Translations under genes and position numbers: made by a program | DNA from: Escherichia coli | GTDB taxonomy: Bacteria; Pseudomonadota; Gammaproteobacteria; Enterobacterales; Enterobacteriaceae | DNA length: 64,000 nucleotides | Assembly (NCBI RefSeq): GCF_044647545.1 | Contig: NZ_CP172818.1 | Reading direction: 5' to 3' (one strand) | Shown: piece after piece, positions 84-55,396 of the stretch | How the letters are laid out: the number at the start of each line of letters is the position of its first letter | How positions within the stretch are numbered: the first letter of the stretch is position 1 | Notes under the pieces: model-generated | Told to the model about the DNA's origin: nothing | The model's database searches: none | The model's input: the letters and a program-made list of their open reading frames with translations, nothing else

Positions 84-507
84 AAAAGTTCTCCATTCAA
101 TCGTTTTAATGATTGAATATGTATTTTTTATATCTAACTTAATGAGTCAATTACATATTGCTCCACTGTTTATATTTTGTTTAGTATTGAATGATTATCA
201 CAATGCGCTATCTGTTTTTGGTTTAATTATCTGTTATTGTTTCATATTGCGGTTTTACTGTGTGGTTTTTTTATGCTTTTGTGGTGCTTTTATCTATTTA
301 AGTGCCATGCCTTTAGAGGCATATAAGCGAAAATAGCATGAGGTTTATCCTCAATTACTATGTTTTTTAGTACAAAAAAGAGGGACAAAACTGAGACACA
401 TAAGGCCTCACAATGGCTTGCAAGGCTTTACATGTTTTGAGGTAGTGGGACGTGTGAGCGCAGAGATGGCGCGGTAAGTTGTTGACTTAAAATGTCGTTC
501 TAGGAAC

Positions 508-551
508 TTCTAAGTCGTGGGCCGCAGGTTCGAATCCTGCAGGGCGCGCCA
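508..551 (+). pseudogene. pauD: 3' fragment of tRNA-Arg (argU-like), the DLP12 prophage right attachment-site remnant
   Basis: CTTCTAAGTCGTGGGCCGCAGGTTCGAATCCTGCAGGGCGCGCCA matches the anticodon-loop-to-3'-end portion of argU tRNA; no 5' half is present, so it is not a functional tRNA. Confidence 0.7.
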
Positions 552-595
552 TTTCTTCTTCATTTAATCCCGTCTTATCCGTTCCGCTTTGCTCT

Positions 596-1357: not shown

Positions 1358-1539
1358 TTCGCACTCCTCAGATATCAGAAACTCCGCTCAAAGGATCTAT
1401 GCTTCCTGCATGAGTGATCGGCCCGTTCGCCGATAACGATCTTCTTTCTTTAGCACGCTTTTTAGCAATTAATCTTGATGGAATTCTGACGAGAGCGAAA
1501 GAGGTAAGCCAGGTCGTACCCGACTTACCTGGAGGAGAT

Positions 1540-2430
1540 TTAATACTCGAGAATGCCGTGCGCGACGGGCAAATAGCGCAGAGAGAAATAGAGCGTGTCT
1601 TTACCGCAAGAGGAACGTTTCGCTAACAGCGAGGCAATTTCTGCGTCCGGTTTCGGTTTCGCTGTAAAGGTTTTGCCTTTGCCGGCGACAAACAGTTCAT
1701 AAACAATGCCGCTTGCTGGGGCGGAGCTTTGGCAATCGGCGCTGGCCTGTAGATAACGTTCACGCTGTTCAGCGGTCAGTTTATCCACGCCGCTGCCATC
1801 CTGTACCCAGACATTAACGCCGGTTGCTTTAACGTGTTCCAGCAGTTGGCGATAGCCATCGGGCGACATGTTTCCGGCGAAAAAACTACTGATATAAACC
1901 GGTTTTGCTGAAACATCGCTAATCAACCGCTGCGCGTTGTTTAACCATGTTAGCAAAGGCTGACGGGCGGCTTCGCTGCGCCAGTTCAGGTCGTCAATTT
2001 CCGCGCTGATGTACCAGCCATCCGGCGTTACGCCAGGTACGGCGCTCCATAATCTGGCTTGCTGGAGATCGGCAGCCAGCAGGCGGTTAAGATAGCTTTC
2101 CAGCGCTGCAGACGACTGTTTCTGGTGCATAAAAAATTCCGGATCGGCATTCAGCCCGACAATCAGCTTCAGGCCAGCCTGTTGCGCAGCTGCGGCACGC
2201 TTAAACAATAACGCGTGCTGTTCTGGCTGGGTGAATGCATCGCCGTAACGAGTCCATTGCAAAACCAGGGTATCGAAGCCTTGCAAACGTAACTGACTCA
2301 TCAGCCCCTGCCACTGGGTATCGGTAACCTGACTATCACGGTTTTGTGGTTGCCAGATAATACCTTTCATCGCAAAGGAAAAAGGGCTGACCAAAAGCAG
2401 TGTCAGCAATACGAAAATGAACTTACGCAT
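1540..2430 (-). CDS. ybcH: Exported protein, third gene of the nfrB-nfrA-ybcH operon
   Basis: 296-aa ORF with N-terminal signal peptide (MRKFIFVLLTLLLVSPFSFA); its start lies directly beside the nfrA stop on the same strand. Confidence 0.85.
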   Translation of the reverse strand: MRKFIFVLLTLLLVSPFSFAMKGIIWQPQNRDSQVTDTQWQGLMSQLRLQGFDTLVLQWTRYGDAFTQPEQHALLFKRAAAAQQAGLKLIVGLNADPEFFMHQKQSSAALESYLNRLLAADLQQARLWSAVPGVTPDGWYISAEIDDLNWRSEAARQPLLTWLNNAQRLISDVSAKPVYISSFFAGNMSPDGYRQLLEHVKATGVNVWVQDGSGVDKLTAEQRERYLQASADCQSSAPASGIVYELFVAGKGKTFTAKPKPDAEIASLLAKRSSCGKDTLYFSLRYLPVAHGILEY

Positions 2431-5403: not shown

Positions 5404-7627
5404 TTTCGGACTCCAGTTGCGCAACCTTTTCTGTGTTTAAACCTGCTTTGAGTAATAGTGATTGCATCGAAACTTGTAATTCGCGTTGAATTGTCAGAAC
5501 GCGATCCAACGTTTCCTGGCTGATAACGCCTTCGGTGACCAAAAACTTGCCGAGCGGCAGAGAACTGCGTTCATGGTGCAATAACAACACGTTAATTGCT
5601 GAACGATTAATATGACCGAGCGTGGTCAGTATTTCGGCGAACAGGAACTGATGCGGCACATATTGCCGCCAGATTTCACCGGCCTGCTGTTCCGTGAGCC
5701 ACTGATGCTGAACCGCATTGTACAACATTGCCCGCGGATCGTGACCGCGTCGGCGCGCATACCAGTGGCGTAACCCCGTGACAATTTGTCCCCGCAGAAC
5801 AATGACGTAACGCACTTTGCGTCCGACTTTACGCGTCAGGGCCGCCAGCGAAACCGGGTCAATACCATCTTCACTGCCGACAATTAACTCATCATTTTCC
5901 AGACGCAGCGGCAGCACTGCATAATGCAGCGCCACGGAGGCCGGCATCTCGGCAATCAGTGATGAAGGGATCTGCCAGGCGTCGATCGACTCCCACGCCA
6001 CGCCGTTTTGCTCTGCCAGCGCCTGTGCCAGCTGCTCGGCGCTAATCAGCCCCTGCATCAGCATTGAACCGCCAAGGCGTAGACCTTCGACGCGATTACG
6101 CAGTGCTGTATCGAGTTGTTCTTCAGTGATGACCTGATTTTCCAGCAGAATTTGACCTAACGGGCGCAACGAGCGGGTATCGCCAGTCACGCTGGGGAAG
6201 TCATGCGTTGTTTTATCCCACGCCACGCGACGTGGATCGCCGTGTTGAAGTACCTGTTTTAACGCGCGCCAGTTGGCCATGAAGTTAATCAGGTTGCCCC
6301 AGAAAAGACGCAGGACAGATAGTAGCCCCTGCGTCAGGCCGTAGTAGCCAGTGACGAAAATCACCCGCTGCACGATGCGGTTAACCATCAAGCCAAAGTT
6401 TAGCCACAGCAGGGTCATTAACCATGCGCTGCCGCTGAAAATAGAAAGGAAATGCCAGGCATCGGGCCACAAACTTTCATACGCCAGTAACAGCAAAAGC
6501 TGGATCATCACCAGCATCGCGAGGAAGCTGACAAAGTTACTGATTGCCCCTTTGCGGTCGCGCCAGAGAAAGTAGTTCAGCGTCAGGCTGGAGGTCCATT
6601 TGTGGGTTTTAAAGCCCTGGAAAACAATGCCGATGATCCAGCGAGATTTTTGTCGAACCGCCGTCGAAAAGGTATCGGGGAAATATTCGCGCACGCAGAT
6701 CATGTTTGACGTCCGCGCGTGCTGTAAAAATTTACGCTGCTCGCGTTCTTTGGCTTCGTCCACCACCGGAAAACGGACAAAAATTTCCGTCATACCTTTT
6801 TCTTTCAGGCGGAAACCAATGTCGTAATCTTCAGTAAGACTCTGCACGTCGAAAGCAATACCGTCACCGTCAGCTAACAGTGCGGTCACGGCGCGGCGGC
6901 TGAAACAAGTACCGACACCTGCGCTGGGCACCTGTCCGGCGAGGGCTTCACGCACCGGAACATCTTTGCCATGCAGTTCTGAAAACTCATCAATGTAAGT
7001 CATGCTGGTGAAGTGCGTCCATTCGCGTTCGAATGGGTATACCGGGATCTGAATCAGATCTTTACGCTCGACCAGATAGTTGAACAGACGCAATTCCATC
7101 GGTGAAATTACGTCTTCGGCGTCATGCAGAATAAAACCAGCAAAAGCGAAATTGGCGCTACGCTCAAACTGGGTGATGGCGTCCAGCACGTTGTTCAGGC
7201 AGTCGGCTTTGCTGGTGGGGCCAGGACGCGCGCAGACTACCTTATGCACGTTTGGGAAGCGAGCGCACACTTCGTCAACATCACGCTGAGTATCGGGGTC
7301 GTTGGGGTAGGTGCCAACAAAGATATGATAGTTTTCATAGTCGAGCGTGGTCGCCGCCAGCTCGGCCATATTGCCGATGACGCCCGTTTCATTCCACGCC
7401 GGAACCATAATCGCTAACGGTTTTTCATCTGGTTTATACAGTTCGCGGTAACTCATTCGCGGGTAGCGGCGATAAACACTCAACTTGCGTTTAATGCGGC
7501 GTACCCAGTAGACGACATCAATAAAAAAATCGTCCAGCCCGCTGATGAACATGATGACCGCTAACGTTATCGCGATTACTTTTAAGCCATATAGCCAGGT
7601 TGCAAAAACATCAAGAAGCCAGTCCAC
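5390..7627 (-). CDS. nfrB: Inner-membrane family-2 glycosyltransferase, phage N4 adsorption protein B (c-di-GMP-responsive)
   Basis: 745-aa ORF with N-terminal transmembrane segment, a DAED acidic motif and a QKSRW (QxxRW) motif characteristic of processive GT2 synthases; overlaps the nfrA start by 14 bp. Confidence 0.9.
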   Translation of the reverse strand: MDWLLDVFATWLYGLKVIAITLAVIMFISGLDDFFIDVVYWVRRIKRKLSVYRRYPRMSYRELYKPDEKPLAIMVPAWNETGVIGNMAELAATTLDYENYHIFVGTYPNDPDTQRDVDEVCARFPNVHKVVCARPGPTSKADCLNNVLDAITQFERSANFAFAGFILHDAEDVISPMELRLFNYLVERKDLIQIPVYPFEREWTHFTSMTYIDEFSELHGKDVPVREALAGQVPSAGVGTCFSRRAVTALLADGDGIAFDVQSLTEDYDIGFRLKEKGMTEIFVRFPVVDEAKEREQRKFLQHARTSNMICVREYFPDTFSTAVRQKSRWIIGIVFQGFKTHKWTSSLTLNYFLWRDRKGAISNFVSFLAMLVMIQLLLLLAYESLWPDAWHFLSIFSGSAWLMTLLWLNFGLMVNRIVQRVIFVTGYYGLTQGLLSVLRLFWGNLINFMANWRALKQVLQHGDPRRVAWDKTTHDFPSVTGDTRSLRPLGQILLENQVITEEQLDTALRNRVEGLRLGGSMLMQGLISAEQLAQALAEQNGVAWESIDAWQIPSSLIAEMPASVALHYAVLPLRLENDELIVGSEDGIDPVSLAALTRKVGRKVRYVIVLRGQIVTGLRHWYARRRGHDPRAMLYNAVQHQWLTEQQAGEIWRQYVPHQFLFAEILTTLGHINRSAINVLLLHHERSSLPLGKFLVTEGVISQETLDRVLTIQRELQVSMQSLLLKAGLNTEKVAQLESENEGE

Positions 7628-7776
7628 ACAAAAACCTTACATTAACGCTGGTTATGTTTAGGGTGGCGTATATTAAAGTTTTTTATGAATTGTGACAGCT
7701 TTTTATCATTAATAGGTAGGATTATTGCGGCACGTTATTTTTACACTGGTTATAAAAGTTGCCGATTGCTGAAGGA

Positions 7777-9219
7777 TTAAGCGGGTAGTTTGATCATAAA
7801 CCTTGTTCCCCGCGCATCTGACGTTACTGCAACCGTGCCTTTATGCGCGACAACAATTGATTTCACTATCGCCAGCCCAATGCCGCTACCTTCGCCTTTT
7901 CGCTGGCGGGAAGGATCAACGCGGTAGAAACGGTCAAACAATCGCGGTAAGTGTTCGGGCGCAATGGGCGTACCGGGGTTTTCGACGGAAACTTGCACCT
8001 GGTGATCGACCGTCTGGCAGCGCACAACAATTGCCTCTCCGGGTGGCGTATAACGCAGGGCGTTCGAAAGCAGGTTGCTTAACGCCCGACGCAACATCAG
8101 CGGATCGCCCGCAACCTGACACTCGTCACCAACAAACCGCAACTCCACGCCGCGATCTTCCGCTAACGCCTCGAAAAAATCGAACACTTTGCCGACTTCA
8201 TCCGCCAGGTTGAGCATTTTCTTTTCGGGGATTAACTGGTTGTTATCGGCCTGAGCGAGAAACAGCATATCGCTGACCATTTTCGCCATTCGAGTCAGCT
8301 CTTCGAGATTAGAGTAGAGCACATCTTCCAGCTCCTTCTGACTGCGCGACTGGCTGAGGGCGATTTCCGTTTGCGTTATGAGATTCGTAATCGGCGTGCG
8401 AATTTCGTGAGCGATATCCGCTGAGAAATTGGACTGGCGGGTAAAGACATCCTCGATACGCTCGATCATATGGTTGAACGACAGCACCAGTTGTTCGAGT
8501 TCAATGGGCACGGTCTGTGGATCGAGGCGAACGTCGAGATCTTTCGAGGTAATGTTCTGGATTTGACGGCTGACGCTGCGAATTGGCGCGTGGCCTTTAT
8601 GTACCGCCAGCAGCACGATAAAGACGATCAGGATGCTGATGATCGATGCGGTCATAATAAGTTTATTCATCAAATCATTTATGTAATGAAGATGAAAATC
8701 GATCGAAAGCGCGATGTAGAGCGTATAAATCGGTTTGCCGTCCACCAACGGGCCAACCGGCAAGTTAATCATCCGCCAGTTGCTGTGTTCCATATGCCCG
8801 TGACCGTGGCCTGGCATCATAATCGTCGGGCCGGAAAGGAGATACACCTCGCCACCCTGAGCGTCTTTATCGGGTATGGCGTCACGCGTAAACTCGCGGA
8901 TATCCGGCGCACCGGGGGAGTGATACACCGTTTTGCCGTGGCTATCTGCCAGGGAAATCAACACGTTGGAATAACCACTGACGATATCTTCCAGCGTCAT
9001 TAAGCGTCGGGCTTGCGTCTCGTCAGGATGATTAAGTACCCGTTCAAGGGTGGCGCTAATTTCTTTTAAATCATTAATATCCTGCTCGGCAAAATGCACT
9101 TTCACTGAGTGGATCATGATCCATGCAAAGGCGAAAAACGCCGCGATGGTGGCCAGGCTGATAAAAAAGGTCAGACGGGTTGCCAGCGAAAACGGGCGCT
9201 GAAATGGCTTACTGACCAT
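7777..9219 (-). CDS. cusS: Copper/silver-sensing histidine kinase
   Basis: 480-aa product from [16 protein letters not shown]; two transmembrane segments flanking a periplasmic domain, conserved His-containing phosphoacceptor region ([10 protein letters not shown]) and ATPase domain; overlaps cusR by 11 bp. Confidence 0.9.
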
Positions 9220-21702: not shown

Positions 21703-22029
21703 TTATGTTGGCGTTTTCTATTCAGTATAGAAGTGGGAGCGACTGGGCGAGATGCGGAAGTTCTGGAATATTTCTTTTTTTGGTGATGGTGAACTGATTG
21801 TGAGTGAAGCAATTTAGCTACTTTTTCAATGTGGCAAGTTATGGCACAGCTGGCTGGTGGCGAAGAATTTTGACGATTGAGGCATGCAGAAAAAACGGGC
21901 TCAGCTTCAGTTGATCAAATGGGGAGTGAGAAGTCCGAAACAGGATTCACTGTATAAATAAACAGCTATTTTGCTGAGGAAGCGTAAGATAACGGCGGGT
22001 GCCTGAAGCTTTCCGGTTTCAGGTTAACT

Positions 22030-22100
22030 CTGAGGTCTGGAAAGATGAAGCCCCAGGACGATATTTCTATCAACCCTGGGGCTGCCACTCCAAACCCGAA
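22030..22100 (-). ncRNA. sokE: Predicted Sok-type antisense RNA overlapping the mokE translation start (coordinates approximate)
   Basis: By analogy with hok/sok loci the antitoxin RNA is antisense to the mok start; on the minus strand a candidate promoter (TTGCCT, 17-nt spacer, TACCAT) sits near 22105-22135 and an inverted repeat (GCCCCAGG…CCTGGGGC) near 22049-22081. Ends not determined. Confidence 0.3.
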
Positions 22101-22233
22101 CAATTTGGATGGTAGTCCCTTCTTCGCATGGAGGCAATATAAACATGCTGACGAAATATGCCCTTGTGGCAGTCATAGTGCTGTGTTTAACGGTGCTGGG
22201 ATTTACGCTTCTGGTCGGCGACTCGCTGTGTGA
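22045..22233 (+). CDS. mokE: mok-type overlapping reading frame that couples translation to hokE
   Basis: 62-aa ATG-initiated ORF overlapping the first two-thirds of hokE in a different frame, the arrangement typical of hok/mok/sok loci. Confidence 0.4.
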
Positions 22234-23039: not shown

Positions 23040-23213
23040 GTCGACCATATTAGAGACTGATGACAAACGCAAAACTGCCTGATGCGCTACGCTTATCAGG
23101 CCTACGTGGTCCTGCAATATATTGAATTGGCAAGATTTTTGTAGGCCGGATAAGGCGTTCACGCCGCATCCGGCATGAACGACGCGCACTTTGTCAACAA
23201 TCTGACGTTAGCA

Positions 23214-26901: not shown

Positions 26902-27120
26902 ATGGCATTCAGTAATCCCTTCGATGATCCACAGGGAGCGTTTTACATTTTGCGCAATGCGCAGGGGCAATTCAGTCTGTGGCCGCAACAATGCCTCTTA
27001 CCGGCAGGCTGGGACATTGTGTGTCAGCCGCAGTCACAAGAGTCCTGCCAGCAGTGGCTGGAAGTCCACTGGCGTACTCTGACACCGGCGAATTTCACCC
27101 AGTTGCAGGAGGCACAATGA
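26902..27120 (+). CDS. ybdZ: MbtH-like protein, NRPS adenylation-domain partner
   Basis: 72-aa ORF MAFSNPFDDPQGAFYILRNAQGQFSLWPQQ… with the conserved Trp pattern of MbtH-like proteins; its ATG lies 2 bp after the fes stop and its stop overlaps the entF ATG. Confidence 0.85.
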   Translation: MAFSNPFDDPQGAFYILRNAQGQFSLWPQQCLLPAGWDIVCQPQSQESCQQWLEVHWRTLTPANFTQLQEAQ

Positions 27121-30100
27121 GCCAGCATTTACCTTTGGTCGCCGCACAGCCCGGCATCTGGATGGCAGAAAAACTGTCGGATTTACCCTCCGCCTGGAGC
27201 GTGGCGCATTACGTTGAGTTAACCGGAGAGGTTGATGCGCCATTACTGGCCCGCGCGGTGGTTGCCGGATTAGCGCAAGCAGATACGCTGCGGATGCGTT
27301 TTACGGAAGATAACGGCGAAGTCTGGCAATGGGTCGATGATGCGCTGACGTTCGAACTGCCAGAAATTATCGACCTGCGAACCAACATTGATCCGCACGG
27401 TACTGCGCAGGCATTAATGCAGGCGGATTTGCAACAAGATCTGCGCGTCGATAGCGGTAAACCACTGGTCTTTCATCAGTTGATACAGGTGGCGGATAAC
27501 CGCTGGTACTGGTATCAGCGTTATCACCATTTGCTGGTCGATGGGTTTAGTTTCCCGGCCATTACCCGCCAGATCGCCAACATTTACTGCGCATGGCTGC
27601 GTGGCGAACCTACGCCTGCTTCGCCGTTTACGCCTTTCGCTGATGTAGTGGAAGAGTACCAGCAATACCGCGAAAGCGAAGCCTGGCAGCGTGATGCGGC
27701 ATTCTGGGCGGAACAGCGTCGTCAATTGCCGCCGCCCGCGTCACTTTCTCCGGCACCTTTACCGGGGCGCAGCGCCTCGGCAGATATTCTGCGCCTGAAA
27801 CTGGAATTTACCGACGGGGAATTCCGCCAGTTGGCTACGCAACTTTCAGGTGTGCAGCGTACCGATTTAGCCCTTGCGTTGGCAGCCTTGTGGCTGGGGC
27901 GATTGTGCAACCGCATGGACTACGCTGCCGGATTTATCTTTATGCGTCGACTGGGCTCGGCGGCGCTGACGGCTACCGGACCCGTGCTCAACGTTTTGCC
28001 GTTGGGTATTCATATTGCGGCGCAAGAAACGCTGCCGGAACTGGCAACCCGACTGGCGGCTCAACTGAAAAAAATGCGTCGCCATCAACGTTACGATGCC
28101 GAACAAATTGTCCGTGACAGCGGGCGAGCGGCAGGTGATGAACCGCTGTTTGGTCCGGTACTCAATATCAAGGTATTTGATTACCAACTGGATATTCCTG
28201 ATGTTCAGGCGCAAACCCATACCCTGGCTACCGGTCCGGTTAATGACCTTGAGCTGGCCCTGTTCCCGGATGAACACGGTGATTTGAGTATTGAGATCCT
28301 CGCCAATAAACAGCGTTACGATGAGCCAACGTTAATTCAACACGCTGAACGCCTGAAAATGCTGATTGCCCAGTTCGCCGCGGATCCGGCGCTGTTGTGC
28401 GGCGATGTCGATATTATGCTGCCAGGTGAATATGCGCAGCTGGCGCAGATCAACGCCACTCAGGTTGAGATTCCAGAAACCACGCTGAGCGCGCTGGTGG
28501 CAGAACAAGCGGCAAAAACACCGGATGCTCCGGCGCTGGTTGATGCGCGTTACCAGTTCAGCTATCGGGAAATGCGCGAACAGGTGGTGGCGCTGGCGAA
28601 TCTGCTGCGTGAGCGCGGCGTTAAACCAGGCGACAGCGTGGCGGTGGCATTACCGCGCTCGGTCTTTTTGACCCTGGCGCTACATGCGATTGTTGAAGCT
28701 GGTGCGGCCTGGCTACCTCTGGATACCGGCTATCCGGACGATCGCCTGAAAATGATGCTGGAAGATGCGCGTCCATCGCTGTTAATCACCACCGACGATC
28801 AACTGCCGCGCTTTGCCGATGTTCCAGATTTAACCCGCCTTTGCTATAACGCCCCGCTTATACCACAGGGCAGTGCGCCGCTGCAGCTTTCACAACCGCA
28901 CCACACGGCTTATATCATCTTCACCTCCGGTTCCACCGGCAGGCCGAAAGGGGTAATGGTCGGGCAGACGGCTATCGTTAACCGCCTGCTCTGGATGCAA
29001 AACCACTACCCGCTTACAGGCGAAGATGTCGTTGCCCAAAAAACGCCGTGCAGTTTTGATGTCTCGGTGTGGGAGTTTTTCTGGCCGTTTATTGCCGGGG
29101 CTAAACTGGTGATGGCTGAACCGGAAGCGCACCGCGACCCGCTCGCTATGCAGCAATTCTTTGCCGAATATGGTGTAACAACCACGCACTTTGTGCCGTC
29201 GATGCTGGCGGCATTTGTTGCATCGATGACGCCGCAAACCGCTCGTCAGAGTTGCGCGACGTTGAAACAGGTTTTCTGTAGTGGTGAGGCCTTACCGGCT
29301 GATTTATGCCGCGAATGGCAACAGTTAACCGGCGCGCCGTTGCATAATCTGTATGGCCCGACGGAAGCAGCGGTAGATGTCAGCTGGTATCCGGCCTTTG
29401 GCGAGGAACTGGCACAGGTACGCGGCAGCAGTGTGCCGATTGGTTATCCGGTGTGGAATACGGGCCTGCGCATTCTCGATGCGATGATGCATCCGGTGCC
29501 GCCGGGTGTGGCGGGAGATCTCTATCTCACCGGTATTCAACTGGCGCAGGGGTATCTTGGACGACCCGATCTGACAGCCAGCCGCTTTATTGCCGATCCT
29601 TTTGCGCCAGGTGAACGCATGTACCGTACCGGAGATGTTGCCCGCTGGCTGGATAACGGCGCGGTGGAGTATCTCGGGCGTAGTGATGATCAGCTAAAAA
29701 TTCGCGGGCAGCGTATCGAACTGGGCGAAATTGATCGCGTGATGCAGGCGCTGCCGGATGTCGAACAAGCCGTTACCCACGCCTGTGTGATTAACCAGGC
29801 GGCAGCCACTGGTGGTGATGCGCGTCAGTTGGTGGGCTATCTGGTGTCGCAATCAGGTCTGCCGTTGGATACCAGCGCATTACAGGCGCAGCTTCGTGAA
29901 ACATTGCCACCACATATGGTACCGGTGGTTCTGCTGCAACTTCCACAGTTACCACTTAGCGCCAACGGCAAGCTGGATCGCAAAGCCTTACCGTTGCCTG
30001 AACTGAAGGCACAAGCGCCGGGGCGTGCGCCGAAAGCGGGCAGTGAAACGATTATCGCCGCGGCATTCTCGTCGTTGCTGGGTTGTGACGTGCAGGATGC

Positions 30101-30998
30101 CGATGCTGATTTCTTTGCGCTTGGCGGTCATTCGCTACTGGCAATGAAACTGGCAGCGCAGTTAAGTCGGCAGTTTGCCCGTCAGGTGACGCCGGGTCAG
30201 GTGATGGTCGCGTCAACCGTCGCCAAACTGGCAACGATTATTGATGGTGAAGAAGACAGCACCCAGCGCATGGGATTCGAAACCATTCTGCCGTTGCGTG
30301 AAGGTAATGGTCCGACGCTGTTTTGTTTCCATCCGGCATCCGGTTTTGCCTGGCAGTTTAGCGTGCTCTCGCGTTATCTCGATCCACAATGGTCGATTAT
30401 TGGCATCCAGTCGCCACGCCCTCATGGCCCCATGCAGACGGCGGCAAACCTGGATGAAGTCTGCGAAGCGCATCTGGCAACGTTACTTGAGCATCAACCG
30501 CACGGCCCTTATTACCTGCTGGGTTATTCGCTGGGCGGTACGCTGGCGCAGGGTATTGCGGCGCGGCTGCGTGCCCGTGGCGAACAGGTGGCATTTCTTG
30601 GCTTGCTGGATACCTGGCCGCCAGAAACGCAAAACTGGCAGGAAAAAGAGGCTAATGGCCTGGACCCGGAAGTGCTGGCGGAGATTAACCGCGAGCGCGA
30701 GGCCTTCCTGGCGGCACAGCAGGGAAGTACTTCAACGGAGTTGTTTACCACCATTGAAGGCAACTACGCTGATGCTGTGCGCCTGCTGACGACTGCTCAT
30801 AGCGTACCGTTTGAAGGTAAAGCGACGCTGTTTGTTGCTGAACGCACGCTTCAGGAAGGTATGAATCCCGAACGCGCCTGGTCGCCGTGGATTACGGAGC
30901 TGGATATCTATCGTCAGGATTGTGCGCATGTGGATATTATCTCGCCGATGGCGTTTGAAAAAATAGGGCCGATTATTCGTGCGACGCTAAATAAGTAA
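27117..30998 (+). CDS. entF: Enterobactin non-ribosomal peptide synthetase (C-A-PCP-TE, serine-activating)
   Basis: 1293-aa product from MSQHLPLVAAQPGIWMAEKL; adenylation core FTSGSTGRPKG, carrier-domain GGHSL motif, thioesterase GYSLGG motif all visible. Confidence 0.95.
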   Translation: MSQHLPLVAAQPGIWMAEKLSDLPSAWSVAHYVELTGEVDAPLLARAVVAGLAQADTLRMRFTEDNGEVWQWVDDALTFELPEIIDLRTNIDPHGTAQALMQADLQQDLRVDSGKPLVFHQLIQVADNRWYWYQRYHHLLVDGFSFPAITRQIANIYCAWLRGEPTPASPFTPFADVVEEYQQYRESEAWQRDAAFWAEQRRQLPPPASLSPAPLPGRSASADILRLKLEFTDGEFRQLATQLSGVQRTDLALALAALWLGRLCNRMDYAAGFIFMRRLGSAALTATGPVLNVLPLGIHIAAQETLPELATRLAAQLKKMRRHQRYDAEQIVRDSGRAAGDEPLFGPVLNIKVFDYQLDIPDVQAQTHTLATGPVNDLELALFPDEHGDLSIEILANKQRYDEPTLIQHAERLKMLIAQFAADPALLCGDVDIMLPGEYAQLAQINATQVEIPETTLSALVAEQAAKTPDAPALVDARYQFSYREMREQVVALANLLRERGVKPGDSVAVALPRSVFLTLALHAIVEAGAAWLPLDTGYPDDRLKMMLEDARPSLLITTDDQLPRFADVPDLTRLCYNAPLIPQGSAPLQLSQPHHTAYIIFTSGSTGRPKGVMVGQTAIVNRLLWMQNHYPLTGEDVVAQKTPCSFDVSVWEFFWPFIAGAKLVMAEPEAHRDPLAMQQFFAEYGVTTTHFVPSMLAAFVASMTPQTARQSCATLKQVFCSGEALPADLCREWQQLTGAPLHNLYGPTEAAVDVSWYPAFGEELAQVRGSSVPIGYPVWNTGLRILDAMMHPVPPGVAGDLYLTGIQLAQGYLGRPDLTASRFIADPFAPGERMYRTGDVARWLDNGAVEYLGRSDDQLKIRGQRIELGEIDRVMQALPDVEQAVTHACVINQAAATGGDARQLVGYLVSQSGLPLDTSALQAQLRETLPPHMVPVVLLQLPQLPLSANGKLDRKALPLPELKAQAPGRAPKAGSETIIAAAFSSLLGCDVQDADADFFALGGHSLLAMKLAAQLSRQFARQVTPGQVMVASTVAKLATIIDGEEDSTQRMGFETILPLREGNGPTLFCFHPASGFAWQFSVLSRYLDPQWSIIGIQSPRPHGPMQTAANLDEVCEAHLATLLEHQPHGPYYLLGYSLGGTLAQGIAARLRARGEQVAFLGLLDTWPPETQNWQEKEANGLDPEVLAEINREREAFLAAQQGSTSTELFTTIEGNYADAVRLLTTAHSVPFEGKATLFVAERTLQEGMNPERAWSPWITELDIYRQDCAHVDIISPMAFEKIGPIIRATLNK

Positions 30999-31011
30999 AT
31001 TTATATTATCT

Positions 31012-31060
31012 ATAAACCCATAATTACAATAAATGATTATGGGTTTATTATTTATTTAAT
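31012..31060 (+). terminator. AT-rich 13-bp perfect inverted repeat followed by T-rich tract downstream of entF
   Basis: ATAAACCCATAAT … ATTATGGGTTTAT with about an 11-nt loop, then TTATTTATTTAATTTAT; about 14 bp after the entF stop. Confidence 0.5.
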
Positions 31061-31212
31061 TTATCAATTTAACGGATATTTCTCTGAAATAGAGTGAATG
31101 TTGCATTCAGTGGGAGGAATTTACAAACTTCAGCTTCGGATAAATCTCACCAACTGGTAAAGTGGGGGCCGTGGAGATTTACTCTTATTGGACCCATTTC
31201 AGGTTATACCGC

Positions 31213-32346
31213 ATGTCATCACTGAATATTAAACAGGGAAGTGACGCTCATTTTCCCGAGTATCCTCTGGCGTCGCCCAGTAATAATGAAATTGATTTAC
31301 TTAATCTAATCGACGTTTTATGGCGGGCAAAAAAAACGGTCATGGCGGTCGTTTTTGCGTTTGCCTGCACAGGATTGCTGATCTCTTTCATCCTGCCGCA
31401 AAAATGGACCAGCGCGGCGGTTGTCACGCCTCCAGAACCTGTTCAGTGGCAAGAACTGGAGAAAACATTCACTAAGCTTCGTGTGCTGGATCTGGATATC
31501 AAAATTGATCGTACAGAAGTATTTAACCTGTTTATCAAGAAGTTTCAGTCTGTTAGCTTACTAGAAGAGTACCTGCGCTCATCACCTTATGTGATGGACC
31601 AATTAAAAGAGGCGAAAATCGACGAACTGGATTTGCATCGAGCTATCGTCGCATTGAGCGAAAAAATGAAAGCGGTTGATGACAATGCCAGTAAGAAAAA
31701 AGATGAACCGTCACTGTATACCTCCTGGACGCTAAGTTTTACCGCGCCAACCAGTGAAGAGGCGCAGACCGTTTTGAGCGGGTATATCGATTATATCTCT
31801 GCGTTGGTGGTGAAAGAGTCGATAGAAAACGTCCGTAATAAACTGGAGATCAAAACCCAGTTTGAAAAAGAAAAACTGGCTCAGGATCGCATTAAAACGA
31901 AAAATCAACTTGATGCAAACATTCAGCGCCTCAATTATTCACTCGACATTGCCAACGCGGCAGGAATTAAAAAGCCCGTTTACAGTAATGGTCAGGCCGT
32001 TAAAGATGACCCCGATTTCTCTATTTCTCTCGGCGCAGACGGTATTGAACGCAAACTGGAAATTGAAAAAGCGGTTACTGACGTTGCGGAATTGAACGGT
32101 GAATTACGTAATCGTCAGTATCTTGTTGAGCAGCTAACAAAAGCAAATATCAACGATGTGAATTTTACGCCGTTTAAATATCAGTTAAGCCCGTCATTGC
32201 CAGTGAAAAAAGACGGTCCGGGTAAGGCGATTATTGTGATCCTTTCTGCGATGATCGGCGGGATGGTGGCTTGTGGTGGCGTGCTGTTGCGCCATGCGAT
32301 GGCATCCAGAAAACAGGATGCCGTGATGGAAGAGCACTTAGTTTAA
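31213..32346 (+). CDS. fepE: Wzz-type polysaccharide co-polymerase (chain-length regulator) encoded inside the enterobactin cluster
   Basis: Start at MSSLNIKQGSDAHFPEY… (377 aa); two TM helices at the N- and C-terminal ends flanking a coiled-coil-rich periplasmic domain; visibly lower GC than neighbours. Confidence 0.85.
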   Translation: MSSLNIKQGSDAHFPEYPLASPSNNEIDLLNLIDVLWRAKKTVMAVVFAFACTGLLISFILPQKWTSAAVVTPPEPVQWQELEKTFTKLRVLDLDIKIDRTEVFNLFIKKFQSVSLLEEYLRSSPYVMDQLKEAKIDELDLHRAIVALSEKMKAVDDNASKKKDEPSLYTSWTLSFTAPTSEEAQTVLSGYIDYISALVVKESIENVRNKLEIKTQFEKEKLAQDRIKTKNQLDANIQRLNYSLDIANAAGIKKPVYSNGQAVKDDPDFSISLGADGIERKLEIEKAVTDVAELNGELRNRQYLVEQLTKANINDVNFTPFKYQLSPSLPVKKDGPGKAIIVILSAMIGGMVACGGVLLRHAMASRKQDAVMEEHLV

Positions 32347-33158
32347 ATCTTGGCAGTTGAAGGTGCCGTTCGTCCGAGCGGCACCACGAGCGGAGTTCCG
32401 GCTACCGGATCGTCAATAATCATGCAGCGCAGACCATAAATGCGCTCGATCAATTCAGCAGTGACAATCTCCTTCGGCGCTCCCTGAGCAACAATTTTCC
32501 CTTCCCGCAATGCAATCAAATGGCTGGCGTAACGACAGGCCTGATTAAGATCGTGCAGCACCGCCGCCAGGGTATAGCCTTTCTCGCGGTTCAGTTCGCT
32601 TAACAGTTCCAGCAAATCAATCTGATGACTGATATCCAGCCAGGTCGTGGGTTCATCGAGCAGCATAATTGCCGTTTCCTGGGCCAGCACCATTGCTATC
32701 CACGCTCGCTGGCGTTGTCCGCCAGAAAGGGTATCCACGCTTTGATCTGCCAGATGAGTGATTCCCGTGGCCTGCATCGCTTTCGTTACCGCGTCTTCAT
32801 CCTCTTTGCGCCAGCGGGTAAACAGCGGTTGATGCGGGTAACGTCCACGCGCCACCAGCTCCTGCACGGTGATATCGCCCGGCGTGGTAGCATTTTGCGC
32901 CAACAGACCAATCCGGCGTGCAACCTCTTTACTGGCGTAATGTTGAATGTGCTCACCATCCAGCCAGACATGCCCGTGAGCAGGTGTCATCAGGCGGCTT
33001 AAAGTACGCAGTAACGTGGATTTACCGCAGCCATTTGGCCCGATAATTGCCGTGAAGTGACCATCAGGTATTTCTACAGTCAGATTCTCCGCAACGGTAT
33101 ATTTGCCATATCCGAGGGTTAACTGTTCGCCGCGCAAACGGGCTACTGATTCGGTCAT
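32343..33158 (-). CDS. fepC: Ferric enterobactin ABC transporter ATP-binding protein
   Basis: 271 aa from MTESVARLRGEQL; Walker A GPNGCGKST and ABC signature LSGGQRQR present. Confidence 0.92.
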   Translation of the reverse strand: MTESVARLRGEQLTLGYGKYTVAENLTVEIPDGHFTAIIGPNGCGKSTLLRTLSRLMTPAHGHVWLDGEHIQHYASKEVARRIGLLAQNATTPGDITVQELVARGRYPHQPLFTRWRKEDEDAVTKAMQATGITHLADQSVDTLSGGQRQRAWIAMVLAQETAIMLLDEPTTWLDISHQIDLLELLSELNREKGYTLAAVLHDLNQACRYASHLIALREGKIVAQGAPKEIVTAELIERIYGLRCMIIDDPVAGTPLVVPLGRTAPSTAKI

Positions 33159-47480: not shown

Positions 47481-48110
47481 TTATTTAACCGTCCAGGCGC
47501 GGGAAAATTGACGGTCGGCAAACAACTCTTGCAGGCCGTTAATTTGCTTCAGGCGCAACACTTCGTCGCTGTCCATTCCCAGCTCTTTGCCAATTTTATT
47601 ATCGTCCCATCCCAACTGGCTGAGTTCTCGGACGATTTCTGACATGGCAGTGATTTGGTGACGTCCACGAGCGCGATTATGACGAATAGTTGCGGCGATG
47701 CGTTGATTACGCGTACCTTCCAGACAGGTCACCGGCAAATAACCTTTTAAGCGTAATTTTAACGATGATGAGCCTTTACCAATTTCATGGCGGTGAAAAC
47801 CATCCACGATTTCCAGGGCATTTTTATCCGTATGCGTGACCACAATGGGTTGGGTAAAACCATCTATTTCAATGGATTTTTTCAGCAGTTTTTTTTCGGG
47901 TGGTGCCACGTTGTTTGGGTTGTAATCATTAGGCATAAGTTGGCTGTTTTTAACCCACAGAACGCAATCCACTGGCTCTTCACGAAAGGGGCTAACCTGA
48001 TGGATCGCCATGCGGATTTCATTAATCGCTTTGATGCGATCATCTTCCGGCAAGCTGGCGAGAAATTGGGTTAAATCCTGCGTTAATCGTTGTTGCATAG
48101 TATCCCCCAT
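47481..48110 (-). CDS. ybdM: ParB/sulfiredoxin-like domain protein (IbrB-like)
   Basis: 209-aa ORF containing EIVDGFHRHEIG (DGxHR ParB/Srx-type motif); start overlaps the ybdN stop by 28 bp; its stop abuts the convergent ybdL stop. Confidence 0.8.
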   Translation of the reverse strand: MGDTMQQRLTQDLTQFLASLPEDDRIKAINEIRMAIHQVSPFREEPVDCVLWVKNSQLMPNDYNPNNVAPPEKKLLKKSIEIDGFTQPIVVTHTDKNALEIVDGFHRHEIGKGSSSLKLRLKGYLPVTCLEGTRNQRIAATIRHNRARGRHQITAMSEIVRELSQLGWDDNKIGKELGMDSDEVLRLKQINGLQELFADRQFSRAWTVK

Positions 48111-49303
48111 TCCTGACGTTTTCCTTTTATCCGTTCGTTATAACGCTGATAGTTCTTCGCTTTCGTAGGACTAAATGATAATGCCCGGCACCAGTAATCG
48201 TTATTGAGTAAAACTTTGCATATTCGCCGCCAGGAGGGGATATCTTTCGCGCCAATGTCCCCTTGCTGGGTTTGTGGAACTTCGATGCCTTTTTTCTGAT
48301 ACCAGTGCAAATAAATGGCGATTTTATTGCGGTAATGCTCAGCTGTTTTTTCCGGCATGCTATTGAGCAGCAATAATGCATATTCTTGCCAGTCTAAATG
48401 TTCTGGCTTGAGGATTTTCCGATGACCATAAAAATGATTATCATGTCCGGCGTAAATGCCGCCACTTTTTACCCCGCTGACTCGTGCGCACATAGCAGCC
48501 CAGCGATCCGGTTCGATAACGTGATAGAGCCATAATCCTTGCCGTTGCTCCGGGCCAAAAGGTTCGCAAATTCGCATATGACGCAGAGGAACGCCTGCCT
48601 GATACATTATATTATACAGTGGGTTACAGAGCTGTTGATGGTTAGCATACCAGGTCCAGATATCAGCCACTTTCCAGTCGTAGATGGGGTAAATGTACCA
48701 ACTATGACCGCCTGGTGCGGCGGTGGTCCAGGGCTTATCATCGGCAAAACGTTGTTTATTTAAACTGGCGATGGCGACAAAACGGTTGTAGGACTCATCT
48801 GCACGGATGCCGATCATCATCGCCGCCGGACGTTTTTGTGAAAACCATTCAGCAAACTCACGCACAAATTGTTCGAAGGTCATGCCAGGCTGGTAAAAGG
48901 AGAAAAAGTCAGGATCGGTTATCGCATCTTGCGGGGGCTGACGCACCCATTCGACATCAGGTTCCCAGCACTGCCATTCGGGTTGGTATTGAGAAAGGGA
49001 ATTTTGCGTCGTAAGCGGGAGCGCAACCCAGTAAAACTCTTCGATGACATCGGCGTAAAACTCACGTAATGACTGAACATAGTTAATAGTGCATGAGAAC
49101 TGCGCTTCCCAGTCGATAAACAAAACGCAGATTTTTTTGCCCATTTGTCGGGCAATTTCGGCGGTCAGATGCAGCATTAATCCGGAATCTTTACCACCCG
49201 AAAAAGAAACGCAGACACGGGGTAGGGTATTAAGTGTCCAGGTAATACGTTCTTTTGCAGCTTCCAGAATATTCAGTGGAAGCGGGATTTTATAAATAGA
49301 CAT
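48083..49303 (-). CDS. ybdN: PAPS-reductase-like PP-loop ATP pyrophosphatase family protein (IbrA-like)
   Basis: 406-aa ORF with N-terminal PP-loop VSFSGGKDS (SGGxDS) typical of the PAPS reductase / DndC superfamily. Confidence 0.85.
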   Translation of the reverse strand: MSIYKIPLPLNILEAAKERITWTLNTLPRVCVSFSGGKDSGLMLHLTAEIARQMGKKICVLFIDWEAQFSCTINYVQSLREFYADVIEEFYWVALPLTTQNSLSQYQPEWQCWEPDVEWVRQPPQDAITDPDFFSFYQPGMTFEQFVREFAEWFSQKRPAAMMIGIRADESYNRFVAIASLNKQRFADDKPWTTAAPGGHSWYIYPIYDWKVADIWTWYANHQQLCNPLYNIMYQAGVPLRHMRICEPFGPEQRQGLWLYHVIEPDRWAAMCARVSGVKSGGIYAGHDNHFYGHRKILKPEHLDWQEYALLLLNSMPEKTAEHYRNKIAIYLHWYQKKGIEVPQTQQGDIGAKDIPSWRRICKVLLNNDYWCRALSFSPTKAKNYQRYNERIKGKRQEWGILCNND

Positions 49304-49449: not shown

Positions 49450-50352
49450 TCAGAAGCTATCATTTAAACGATCTATGAATCGGGAGAAGACAAGGTTGTT
49501 CAACGAAGCCTTGTTATAGGAAATATAAAGTTTAACCGCAGGAAGAGGTTGTTCCAGTTTTATTTCTTTTAACTTCAAAAAGTCACGATGTAAATTGTAC
49601 AGTTCGGTGGGCACAATGCCTAATAAGTCAGTAACAGAAATACTATTAATTATAGTCATCAAAGAAGAACTGCGAAATGAAACTTTACGGTTCATAAAAC
49701 GTTCATCTATGTCCATTTGAATTTCGTCAATCCCTGCTGATTTAGATATCAACAGGGTGAATTCTTCGGCGATAATTTGTTCATAGTTACTGGTATCGGT
49801 AATACGAGGATGTTTGTTGCTACATATAAGAGAATTGCGAATAGTATGTAACGGCATGCAGATGACAGAGCGGCTAATTACTGGTTGTAGTGTAATTGCC
49901 AGGTCAGTTTTGCGTTGAACCAACAGTTCTTCGGCATTTTCAGCTGAAAGCAGTATGTCATGGCATTCTATATCGATTGAAGTATCTTGTCTAAGACAGC
50001 GGATTAGCATGTTGTTATTAGTACAAGAAATAAGCTGAGGACCGTAGATAATAAAATTTTTCTTTAGCTCAGACTTATTAACAATATTGATCGTTTGTTC
50101 AATGCCTCTGAGATTTTTCTCAAGATGATGATGCAGATTTAACCCTGTCGTAGTCGGCGCGATACCTTTCCCTGAACGAATGAATAACGGGTCATTAAAT
50201 TGCGCACGTAAACGTTGTAACGACTGACTAACAGCAGAGGGCGTTATATATAATGATTCTGCCGCTTTACTAATGCTGAGATGTTGATAAATACATTCAA
50301 ATATGACCAGTAAATTGAGGTCAAATTTTTTTAGATCATAAAGATTCGCCAT
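49450..50352 (-). CDS. ybdO: LysR-family transcriptional regulator
   Basis: Start at MANLYDLKKFDLNLLVIFECIYQHLSISKAAESLYITPSAVSQ (LysR HTH); about 300 aa; markedly AT-rich coding sequence. Confidence 0.8.
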   Translation of the reverse strand: MANLYDLKKFDLNLLVIFECIYQHLSISKAAESLYITPSAVSQSLQRLRAQFNDPLFIRSGKGIAPTTTGLNLHHHLEKNLRGIEQTINIVNKSELKKNFIIYGPQLISCTNNNMLIRCLRQDTSIDIECHDILLSAENAEELLVQRKTDLAITLQPVISRSVICMPLHTIRNSLICSNKHPRITDTSNYEQIIAEEFTLLISKSAGIDEIQMDIDERFMNRKVSFRSSSLMTIINSISVTDLLGIVPTELYNLHRDFLKLKEIKLEQPLPAVKLYISYNKASLNNLVFSRFIDRLNDSF

Positions 50353-51303: not shown

Positions 51304-51674
51304 TAATTTGTCCTTTTCAGTCAGTGCAAAAGTCGAGTAAAAGGCATAACCTATCACTGTCATAGGTAAGAGCTTAGATCAGGTGATTGCCCTTTGTTTA
51401 TGAGGGTGTTGTAATCCATGTCGTTGTTGCATTTGTAAGGGCAACACCTCAGCCTGCAGGCAGGCGCTGAAGATACCAAAGGGTAGTTCAGATTACACGG
51501 TCACCTGGAAAGGGGGCCATTTTACTTTTTATCGCCGCTGGCGGTGCAAAGTTCACAAAGTTGTCTTACGAAGGTTGTAAGGTAAAACTTATCGATTTGA
51601 TAATGGAAACGCATTAGCCGAATCGGCAAAAATTGGTTACCTTACATCTCATCGAAAACACGGAGGAAGTATAG

Positions 51675-55167: not shown

Positions 55168-55214
55168 TTTTACTCCATGTCGTCGGTACTGCGAGTGTCG
55201 CAGATAAACATACC

Positions 55215-55250
55215 CAAAAGAAAACCCTCACCGTCAGGCGGCGAGGGTTT
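55215..55250 (-). terminator. Hairpin terminator between rna and rnk (minus strand)
   Basis: AACCCTCACCG…CGGCGAGGGTT inverted repeat; on the minus-strand transcript it is followed by UUUUCUUUUGGG. Confidence 0.5.
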
Positions 55251-55396
55251 AACTCACATGATGATACTGACTGTTGCTCACTCTTTGAAGTGATTTGCGT
55301 CACATTCAGGGAATTCCTCAATGTAGCGCATTATGTATAAATCTTAATCGTCATGGTTTATGGAAGACGAATTAGCGTGTTTTGTAAATCAGAGGA

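Follow-up and report, generated by a model that had tools for sequence, protein, structure and literature searches.

The closest described counterparts of the fepE product considered here are Wzz(FepE) of E. coli K-12 and O157:H7 (PDB entries 3B8M, 3B8N, 4E2L and 9SKI-9SKL) and of Salmonella Typhimurium, which are encoded by this very gene in the equivalent position, between entF and fepC. That fepE encodes a Wzz co-polymerase has been established since Murray et al. 2003 (cited in PMC4444967). In EHEC, fepE has been shown experimentally to give long O-antigen chains, and very-long chains are tied to the efficiency of type III secretion and to attachment (PMC8669466). A cryo-EM study handles FepE as a very-long O-antigen co-polymerase (PMC13161533), and in Salmonella, very-long O-antigen chains are tied to bile resistance and gut fitness (PMC3447750). 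The PCP-1 proteins WzzB, responsible for the short and long O-antigen modes, and WzzE, which acts on ECA, share the fold class and domain order of FepE. However, wzzB and wzzE adjoin their own polysaccharide clusters; fepE stands alone inside a siderophore cluster, and the modal length associated with FepE in the literature is much longer.

Expression of fepE has been described as well. A fepE promoter fragment from EHEC drives gfp and binds H-NS, and it is 3.3-fold derepressed in an hns mutant (PMC8669466). SdiA represses an E. coli fepE promoter fusion approximately 7-fold (PMC11619404). Serum exposure of ExPEC induces fes, ybdZ and entF but not fepE, which responds to complement instead (PMC4145685). 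In K-12, entF is up 13.7-fold alongside fes and ybdZ, and fepE is not listed (PMC6049941). Databases and papers still give fes-ybdZ-entF-fepE as a single operon.

The DNA analysed here is a 64,000-nt stretch of an E. coli chromosome (GCF_044647545.1, contig NZ_CP172818.1), referred to as a whole as the window. From position 7784 on, it shares ~99.9% identity with E. coli FDAARGOS_497, and its ent region is 96.5-97% identical to that of K-12. On the plus strand, entF (27117-30998, stop codon at 30996-30998) encodes the enterobactin NRPS and is the last gene of the Fur-controlled fes-ybdZ-entF unit; its product carries Condensation, AMP-binding, PP-binding and Thioesterase domains (Pfam), and the gene is so annotated in RefSeq for an identical genome. 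[quoted passage not shown] The next gene, fepC (32343-33158), lies on the minus strand, convergent with fepE, and the stop codons of the two genes overlap by 4 nt (TTAA), which leaves no room for a terminator between them. This overlap is common to other Escherichia species; Salmonella and Citrobacter have in its place a fepE-fepC gap of 46-72 nt with a GC-rich hairpin. The segment singled out in the preliminary description, 31012 to 32346, runs exactly from the first base of the hairpin after entF to the fepE stop. The gene is carried by 5417 of 5426 E. coli genomes, those that are 100% identical annotate it as wzz(fepE), and the window protein differs from other E. coli Wzz(FepE) only in allelic substitutions. 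The fepE locus is already well known, largely described and ordinary.

With a probability of roughly 0.8, the region comprises two adjacent, independently transcribed units: a terminated fes-ybdZ-entF unit and fepE, an ancient junction gene that encodes Wzz(FepE) and is expressed from its own promoter. The widely copied operon fes-ybdZ-entF-fepE is probably, then, two transcription units split by a phylogenetically conserved terminator, and fepE should therefore not be counted in the Fur/iron regulon, either in regulon models or in the interpretation of transcriptomes. The correction is a small and practical one.

The element that would divide the two units is a perfect 13-bp, AT-rich inverted repeat after entF, which had been noticed from the sequence alone and proved real. 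Its arms, ATAAACCCATAAT (31012-31024) and ATTATGGGTTTAT (31036-31048), are fully complementary and stand 11 nt apart, and the first begins 14 nt past the entF stop. As plus-strand RNA, the hairpin (31012-31048) has 15 pairs, including T-G and A-T extensions, and a 7-nt loop; its dG is -15.5 kcal/mol (z -4.65), and none of 200 shuffles folds as well. The inverted-repeat pattern occurs once in the window against an expectation of 0.00. Directly downstream lies a T-rich tail (31049-31063, plus strand; TATTTATTTAATTTA here, TTTATTTGTTTGATT in the K-12 allele) that is terminator-like in a consensus scan, a scan that returned 2 such sites in the region against 2.8 expected from shuffles and thus no excess. 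A dispersed repeat or mobile element was considered and rejected, as the hairpin is single-copy in each E. coli genome and has no flanking direct repeats or tRNA genes. Likewise, the hairpin belongs to no known RNA family, because Rfam searches of positions 30800-31400 at permissive thresholds gave only sub-threshold chance matches to eukaryotic miRNA and snoRNA models. A literature search for a described entF-fepE terminator found nothing relevant, and the published Term-seq and 3ʹ-end supplements that were searched hold no entF or fepE entry.

Conservation of the element was assessed across 21 ent-linked loci from Escherichia, Salmonella, Citrobacter and Intestinirhabdus. A hairpin with a T-tract is found after entF in this set, with stem sequences that differ between loci, and almost every locus has the T-tract behind the stem (it is weak in C. 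werkmanii). In the alignment, 92.1% of the cells are paired, compared with 38-53% when the partners are slid, and 10 of the 15 stem pairs show double, compensatory changes. The covariation score of 0.489, compared with 0.06-0.15, was reached by none of 500 shuffles, and RNAalifold independently predicts the identical helix. Compensatory change is also evident within the species, in strain ECOR29, where an A>T change in the stem is matched by T>A. Moreover, G·U cells number 43 among the pair types and A·C cells just 2, which places the structure on the plus-strand RNA.

The most fitting reading of the hairpin is an intrinsic terminator that closes fes-ybdZ-entF. The preliminary description had offered a terminator or a protein-binding site; compensatory pairing in four genera, G·U pairs on the plus strand only and the T-tract uphold the former option and not the latter. 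Like canonical Rho-independent terminators, the element has a stem-loop with a 7-nt loop, a U-rich tract directly after it, a position close to a stop codon and compensatory pairing. Unlike them, its stem is unusually AT-rich and long. It has only 3 G-C pairs among the 15, a departure from the G+C-rich stem expected of this class, and owes its stability to its length; Citrobacter versions have 4-6 G-C pairs. The U-tract of the window allele is, additionally, broken by A residues (UAUUUAUUUAAUUU; tail TATTTATTTA), the alleles being UAUUUAUUU in the window and UUUUUUAUUU in K-12. Because the stem is AT-rich and the U-tract interrupted, termination may be partial. The Fur-controlled fes-ybdZ-entF transcript would end in Rho-independent fashion at this stable, AT-rich hairpin and U-tract (31012-31063).

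Downstream of the tail, the spacer, which has a GC content of 0.327 overall, contains a site (31068-31080, plus strand) homologous to the H-NS DNase footprint published for EHEC (PMC8669466). That footprint maps to spacer positions 70-82 in O157:H7 and ECOR29; the sequence is TTTGCTGGTTATT in O157:H7 and TTTAACGGATATT here, and the alleles at the site also include TTTGATGAATATT. The window allele differs at 4 of the 13 positions, and the EHEC motif is absent from the window at up to 3 mismatches. The stretch behind the terminator is hypervariable in E. coli: over 82 nt, 3939 of 5426 genomes are 80-90% identical to the window allele, an uncommon one that is matched at ≥99% identity in 146 of the 5426.

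Further downstream, transcription of fepE would start from a weak sigma-70 promoter of its own, which is predicted at 31135-31163 on the plus strand. The putative -35 (TTCGGA, 31135-31140) and -10 (TAAAGT, 31158-31163) hexamers are separated by a 17-nt spacer ending in TGG (extended -10), with a start site expected near 31170. They are placed within CGGATAAtTCT..N..TGnTAnnnT; no other block is conserved throughout the 20 ent-linked spacers of the alignment. A consensus promoter scan did not pick up the proposed promoter, whose -35 matches at 3 of 6 positions. A weak candidate RBS, AGG (31201-31203, plus strand), is located 9 nt before the ATG, and CAGGT is conserved in the aligned Escherichia, Salmonella and Citrobacter spacers. 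The best match to a Fur box in the spacer has 8 mismatches and is equalled by 90% of shuffles, compared with 3-6 mismatches in the true Fur spacers of the ent/fep cluster, and a CRP consensus scan of the spacer did no better than shuffles. The fepE promoter would thus lie within an AT-rich spacer that is bound by H-NS and has no Fur box.

The suggestion that fepE is separately regulated gains from all of these observations: the terminator in the spacer, the missing Fur box, the conserved promoter-like block, the published H-NS and SdiA fusions and the induction tables without fepE. The first, second and last of these also set fepE apart from membership in a Fur-regulated fes-ybdZ-entF-fepE operon; the evidence on co-induction comes from published expression tables.

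Two readings grant the hairpin less than full insulation. According to one, which is doubtful, the AT-rich entF terminator is deliberately imperfect and the stretch behind it serves as a tuning knob, such that read-through from the Fur-derepressed entF transcript and lineage-specific H-NS silencing couple very-long O-antigen to iron starvation, more strongly in some E. coli lineages than in others. If true, this would amount to a strain-specific link between nutritional immunity and resistance to serum or complement. According to the other, which we consider unlikely, the hairpin terminates transcription incompletely or only under certain conditions, or is no more than a stem that stabilises the 3ʹ end of the mRNA, and an appreciable part of fepE expression arises by read-through from Fur-regulated fes-ybdZ-entF. 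The AT-rich stem with its 3 G-C pairs and the interrupted U-tract of the window allele would fit read-through, as would the shared strand of fes, ybdZ, entF and fepE and the several papers that list the four as an operon. However, both transcriptome tables show fes, ybdZ and entF (13.7-fold) induced with fepE unlisted, the hairpin and T-tract have been kept by covariation, and the reporter fusions demonstrate an active, independent promoter region.

It is very unlikely that the inverted repeat acts as a DNA operator, bound by a dimer that regulates fepE (PmrA or SdiA, for instance, or some other protein), and not as an RNA element. That the spacer is known to bind regulators and that the palindrome in it is perfect over 13 bp are suggestive of such a site, and a PmrA-box-like string with one mismatch (31044-31060) overlaps the T-tract. 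Nevertheless, the arms vary between genera while their pairing persists, which an operator would not tolerate, and the excess of G·U over A·C cells (43 vs 2) indicates a symmetry that exists only on the plus-strand RNA. Moreover, 11 nt separate the arms, and the conserved promoter block follows approximately 90-120 nt downstream of the element. PmrA-like matches in the window number 51, compared with 39 ± 7 by chance, which is no excess, and the published H-NS footprint falls downstream of the hairpin and not on it.

The base composition of fepE had been taken as a sign of separate acquisition or regulation. That fepE and its upstream region are visibly AT-rich relative to their flanks is correct: the gene has a GC content of 0.444-0.446 and a GC3 of 0.468, and the 15 ent/fep genes average 0.558 ± 0.030 and 0.605 (z -3.9 for GC and -2.35 for GC3). 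Its GC content is the second-lowest among 52 window genes with transferred annotation, a comparison that includes the ends of the window, where the FDAARGOS_497 annotation is out of register (the first ~11 kb and last ~10 kb) because of different content and indels; the out-of-register genes were left out of the codon-bias analysis. The expected departure in composition and codon usage was found for GC and not for codons. The CAI of fepE is no different from that of its neighbours (0.301 vs 0.305), and its Karlin codon bias relative to the ent pool, 0.312, ranks 13th of 33 genes and is no outlier. With the synonymous usage of the ent pool, fepE would have a GC content of 0.479, compared with 0.561 for the pool itself, and ~70% of the deficit is accordingly due to amino-acid composition. 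The low GC thus arises mostly because the protein is rich in Lys, Glu, Ile and Asn; synonymous sites add a lesser shift towards AT. In every genus examined, fepE is 9-16 points below entF in GC. This case therefore cautions against taking GC dips for horizontal transfer when the low GC is mainly an effect of protein composition.

The distribution of the gene bears on its origin. The order entF-fepE-fepC is found in Escherichia, Salmonella, Citrobacter, Pseudocitrobacter, Intestinirhabdus, two Enterobacter sp., UBA7338 and Pseudescherichia. In Kluyvera, Yokenella, Kosakonia and E. asburiae, the entF/fepC junction is without fepE, being empty or holding other cargo, and no FepE remnants were found at the junction in these four. 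The E. cloacae complex and other genera carry FepE homologues away from this junction; in E. cloacae and Trabulsiella, they adjoin ygeA-lysR. The convergent entF/fepC junction is thus a variable slot in Enterobacteriaceae, one that fepE has probably occupied since before Escherichia, Salmonella and Citrobacter diverged. In an NJ tree of FepE proteins (no support values), the ent-linked genes fall into two clades, and the tree does not decide between one insertion, two insertions or loss in other lineages. Separate acquisition, as put forward in the preliminary description, finds support as an ancient event only, given junctions that are without fepE or genomes with a homologue elsewhere. The argument from composition has less force than it seems to, because the protein accounts for ~70% of the GC deficit and fepE is as codon-adapted as its neighbours.

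A recent horizontal insertion, with the low GC as a signature of foreign DNA, is highly improbable and is largely refuted by synteny already. The GC contrast of fepE (0.444) and the spacer (0.327) with the neighbours (0.558) would fit a recent arrival, as would the binding of the promoter region by H-NS, a silencer of AT-rich foreign DNA. However, fepE occupies the same site in nearly all E. coli genomes as well as in Salmonella and Citrobacter, and its divergence tracks that of its neighbours (Salmonella and E. coli are 74% identical in FepE, 74% in Fes and 79% in EntF). The ordinary CAI and codon bias and the share of the GC deficit explained by amino acids argue against it further, and the flanks of fepE contain no meaningful direct repeats, tRNA genes or mobility genes. 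What would mark a recent islet is consequently limited to atypical GC, in a gene that is near-universal in the species, syntenic beyond it and typical in CAI.

The identity of the protein is established. The Wzz domain (residues 25-122, including TM1; 31285-31578, plus strand), delimited by Pfam PF02706 and a hydropathy scan, scores 69.3 bits (cut-off 25.5; E 3.5e-19). The NCBIfam equivalog for Wzz(fepE), NF007699, is matched over model positions 1-368 of 368 at 626.3 bits (cut-off 300). These searches gave the clear match to the Wzz/PCP family that had been anticipated. In comparison, FepE reaches only 121 bits with the WzzB model (cut-off 267) and 88 bits with the WzzE model (cut-off 332). 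FepE aligns end to end with the solved structure 9SKI with a handful of substitutions, and the match to 3B8M is also full-length; the Salmonella protein is 74-75% identical to that of the window and has the Wzz domain and two TM helices in common with it.

The two-TM architecture ascribed to FepE was recovered, with one helix near each terminus. In a Kyte-Doolittle scan (19 residues, threshold 1.6), only residues ~39-64 and ~335-360 exceed the threshold, which places TM1 at residues ~41-63 (31333-31401, plus strand) and TM2 at residues ~337-360 (32221-32292, plus strand). Just ahead of TM2 is the Pro/Gly-rich motif SPSLPVKKDGPG (residues 325-336). In an alignment of 15 family members, P330 and G335 of this motif never vary and P327 and P336 hardly ever do. 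At 377 aa, FepE lacks a cytoplasmic tyrosine-kinase domain, the N-terminal match to that type of model being 17.7 bits against a cut-off of 1248; the absence of this domain separates PCP-1 from PCP-2a. Besides its two TM helices, FepE, a class-1 polysaccharide co-polymerase, has a long, helical domain in the periplasm from which a large barrel is assembled, and together with the Wzy polymerase it would give the very-long modal length. On these sequence grounds, the fepE of the window is the gene predicted to set the very-long O-antigen modal length. The O-antigen cluster itself lies outside the 64-kb window.

That FepE instead takes part in ferric-enterobactin transport, as the name of its gene, the location inside the ent/fep cluster and older PDB entries under the name "Ferric enterobactin transport protein FepE" imply, has practically no likelihood given the match to a Wzz-family equivalog, the fepE-dependent long O-antigen chains of EHEC (PMC8669466), the treatment of FepE as an O-antigen co-polymerase by cryo-EM (PMC13161533), and the existence of both homologues outside ent clusters and complete ent clusters without fepE. 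The view that FepE is a Wzz-type co-polymerase rather than a transporter, reached earlier from its architecture, is thus confirmed by Pfam, the NCBIfam equivalog and the 9SKI and 3B8M matches, and FepE plays no role in enterobactin transport. The PDB matches of FepE also include 6RBG and 8C0E, of the WzzB/WzzE type.

The low-GC gene beyond entF is fepE, whose existence and function in very-long O-antigen synthesis are already known. Several genomes are 100% identical to a 1551-nt query spanning the fepE/hairpin region, and their annotation places entF at 27117-30998 (+), wzz(fepE) at 31213-32346 (+) and fepC at 32343-33158 (-). The 377-aa fepE product carries a Pfam Wzz domain (residues 25-122), scores 626 bits with the NCBIfam Wzz(fepE) equivalog (cut-off 300) while staying below threshold for the WzzB and WzzE models, and matches the solved full-length FepE structure 9SKI end to end. 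Hydropathy gives two TM segments (residues ~41-63 and ~337-360), the second preceded by a family-conserved Pro/Gly-rich motif. FepE is treated as a very-long O-antigen co-polymerase in a 2026 cryo-EM study (PMC13161533), and long O-antigen chains in EHEC depend on fepE (PMC8669466). Because domain, equivalog and structure matches agree with this published role, the preliminary description was right to call fepE Wzz-type rather than a transporter. Of 5426 complete E. coli genomes, 5417 have the region; the window from 7784 to 63920 is ~99.9% identical to strain FDAARGOS_497, and its ent region shares 96.5-97% identity with K-12 MG1655.

The perfect 13-bp inverted repeat first noticed after entF is exact, with arms ATAAACCCATAAT (31012-31024) and ATTATGGGTTTAT (31036-31048), and the window has a single occurrence of the pattern (0.00 expected). 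As RNA, it folds into a stem of 15 pairs closing a 7-nt loop (dG -15.5 kcal/mol, z = -4.65; none of 200 shuffles folds as well), directly followed by TATTTATTTAATTTA. FepE-encoding loci were collected from one genome per species and their neighbouring genes mapped; in 21 ent-linked loci of Escherichia, Salmonella, Citrobacter and Intestinirhabdus, a hairpin and then a T-tract lie 4-42 nt past the entF stop. The stem sequences are frequently unlike: AAACCC pairs with GGGUUU in E. coli, AAAGCC with GGCUUU in Escherichia sp. MOD1, AAAUCC with GGAUUU in Escherichia sp. E1V33, UCCCUCGUAAC with GUUACGGGGGA in C. amalonaticus, and AACCCUUAAUAAU with AUUAUUAAGGGUU in Intestinirhabdus. Within E. coli, one stem pair in ECOR29 shows a compensatory change (A>T / T>A). 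In the 21-sequence alignment, 92.1% of helix cells are paired, a share that drops to 38-53% on sliding the 3ʹ partners by 1-3 columns, and 10 of the 15 helix pairs have changed on both sides. The covariation score of the helix (0.489) exceeds that of the slid controls (0.06-0.15) and was reached by none of 500 shuffles, and RNAalifold, unprompted, gives the same helix.

The preliminary description had left open whether the repeat was a terminator or a protein-binding site. The helix contains 43 G·U cells and only 2 A·C cells, so what is conserved is pairing in the plus-strand RNA (the entF transcript) rather than symmetry of the DNA. Together with the covariation, this argues against a protein operator and, with the T-tract, favours the terminator. 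The hairpin is not a mobile or dispersed element, since its sequence is single-copy per genome and flanking repeats and tRNA genes are absent. From the comparison of sequences, the hairpin at 31012-31048 is best read as a conserved intrinsic terminator of entF. Its stem has only 3 G-C pairs, and the U-tract of the window allele is interrupted. A consensus scan of the region found terminator-like sites no more numerous than in shuffles, and no 3ʹ end was mapped to the hairpin among accessible published Term-seq supplements.

The operon fes-ybdZ-entF-fepE is commonly quoted as one unit (PMC4145685, PMC6049941). A conserved intrinsic terminator that would split this textbook operon is a mildly new point, made by comparison. 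Two transcriptome tables argue likewise: in ExPEC in serum, fes, ybdZ and entF are induced and fepE is not, responding instead to complement (PMC4145685), and in K-12 the first three are listed as induced (entF 13.7-fold) and fepE is not listed (PMC6049941). The quoted operon is therefore probably two units, with fepE on its own.

The 214-nt entF-fepE spacer holds no Fur box, its best match having 8 mismatches and being equalled by 90% of shuffles; those spacers in the cluster that are genuine Fur targets have 3-6. Within the aligned promoter-proximal 150 nt, one block, CGGATAAtTCT…TGnTAnnnT, is conserved in 20/20 ent-linked loci and is predicted to be the fepE promoter (31135-31163, +), with a putative -35 TTCGGA (31135-31140) and -10 TAAAGT (31158-31163) separated by a 17-nt spacer ending TGG. 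PmrA reportedly controls fepE in Salmonella. A fepE promoter fragment from EHEC drives gfp and is bound by H-NS, with 3.3-fold derepression in an hns mutant (PMC8669466); SdiA represses an E. coli fepE promoter fusion ~7-fold (PMC11619404), and the E. cloacae homologue is SdiA/AHL-activated. These experiments agree with an independent, separately controlled promoter in the spacer, and separate regulation, as originally suggested, is thus borne out. Approximately 30 nt 5ʹ of the predicted -35 lies a palindrome, GAATGTTGCATTC (31096-31108), conserved in Escherichia, to which a regulator could bind; in the alignment, its place is taken in Salmonella and Citrobacter by another palindrome, AATTCCGAAT.

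The spacer is unusually variable within E. coli. Its 5ʹ 82 nt (30999-31080) are at least 99% identical to the window allele in only 146 of 5426 genomes and 80-90% identical in 3939. Over its full length, the spacer shares 87.9% identity with K-12, compared with 98-100% for other cluster spacers and ~96-97% for coding regions; the terminator stem and promoter block are conserved islands within it. The published EHEC H-NS footprint, TTTGCTGGTTATT, occupies positions 70-82 of the O157:H7 spacer, ~20 nt past the terminator tail, where the window allele reads TTTAACGGATATT (31068-31080). The variability of this stretch, footprint site included, is also mildly new. In E. coli LR-58-1 (locus L097, NZ_AP027553.1, ~351-651), an IS200C element directly follows the entF terminator T-tract (…GGGTTTTTT/GTGCACAG…), upstream of the expected fepE start.

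In E. coli, as in other Escherichia, the other end of fepE overlaps the convergent fepC by 4 nt (32343-32346; TTAA), the two stop codons being shared. This leaves no terminator space, so each transcript must run antisense into the opposite gene; in Salmonella and Citrobacter the two genes are 46-72 nt apart, with a GC-rich hairpin resembling a bidirectional terminator. Inside fepE, the minus strand has a terminator-like site (31411-31430; 6-pair stem, then GGTCCATTTT), of a kind no commoner than in shuffles; if real, it could halt antisense read-through from fepDGC.

The reported AT-richness holds for base composition: fepE has a GC of 0.444 and GC3 of 0.468, against averages of 0.558 and 0.605 for 15 ent/fep genes (z = -3.9 and -2.35), and the spacer has a GC of 0.327. 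It does not extend to codon adaptation (CAI 0.301 versus 0.305 for neighbours), and the Karlin codon bias against the ent pool (0.312) ranks 13th of 33 genes. FepE contains 9.0% Lys versus 2.8% in the pool; it is also richer in Glu, Ile, Asn and Asp and poorer in Gly, Ala and Arg. Recoded with the synonymous preferences of the pool, the gene still has a GC of 0.479 (pool 0.561, observed 0.446); thus, ~70% of the deficit is amino-acid composition, and the rest comes from synonymous sites, which are modestly shifted towards AT. The GC of fepE is 9-16 points lower than that of entF in all genera compared, so low GC is a lasting feature of the gene rather than a scar still awaiting amelioration.

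Separate acquisition, also proposed initially, stands as an ancient event, not a recent one. The order entF-fepE-fepC is common to Escherichia, Salmonella, most Citrobacter, Pseudocitrobacter and Intestinirhabdus, and occurs in two Enterobacter sp., UBA7338 and Pseudescherichia. Elsewhere the junction lacks fepE: in Kluyvera it measures 121 nt and carries GC-rich REP-like palindromes, in Yokenella it measures 384 nt, in Kosakonia it measures 567 nt and includes REP elements, and in E. asburiae it holds YadA-anchor and DUF817 genes. No FepE remnants were found in these four gaps. Away from this junction, FepE-subfamily genes (47-61% identity) occur in the E. cloacae complex, Trabulsiella, Lelliottia, C. 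sedlakii, Buttiauxella, Kosakonia and Cedecea, adjoining ygeA-lysR in E. cloacae and Trabulsiella. Hence, fepE behaves as a solo unit able to relocate, and the entF/fepC junction as a variable slot. Its arrival there is ancient: the FepE proteins of E. coli and Salmonella are 74% identical, in line with Fes (74%) and EntF (79%). A neighbour-joining tree of FepE proteins, which carries no support values, is compatible with one gain, several gains or losses. Overall, the initial observation is confirmed and its interpretation supported with these caveats. In Pseudocitrobacter (loci L023 and L024), the entF-fepE spacer is 1.58 kb versus ~220 nt, with added content at the same junction.

A second AT-rich patch, stronger than fepE, comprises citR (49450-50352; GC 0.367, the lowest in the window, GC3 0.342) and ybdM and ybdN (47481-49303; GC ~0.465). 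The segment next to cusS is strain-variable: window 1-7783, which encodes an AraC-family protein, DUF4434, nfrA (phage N4 adsorption protein) and nfrB (glycosyltransferase with MshEN domain), has no match in FDAARGOS_497, where Rhs, DcrB-like and VgrG genes lie upstream of cusS. Four matches in the window reach the Rfam gathering score: the rnk leader (55213-55321, -), the sok antitoxin of hokE (21997-22153, +), STnc70 in the dsbG-ahpC spacer (51437-51530, +) and ES036 in the entD-fepA spacer (23098-23139, -).
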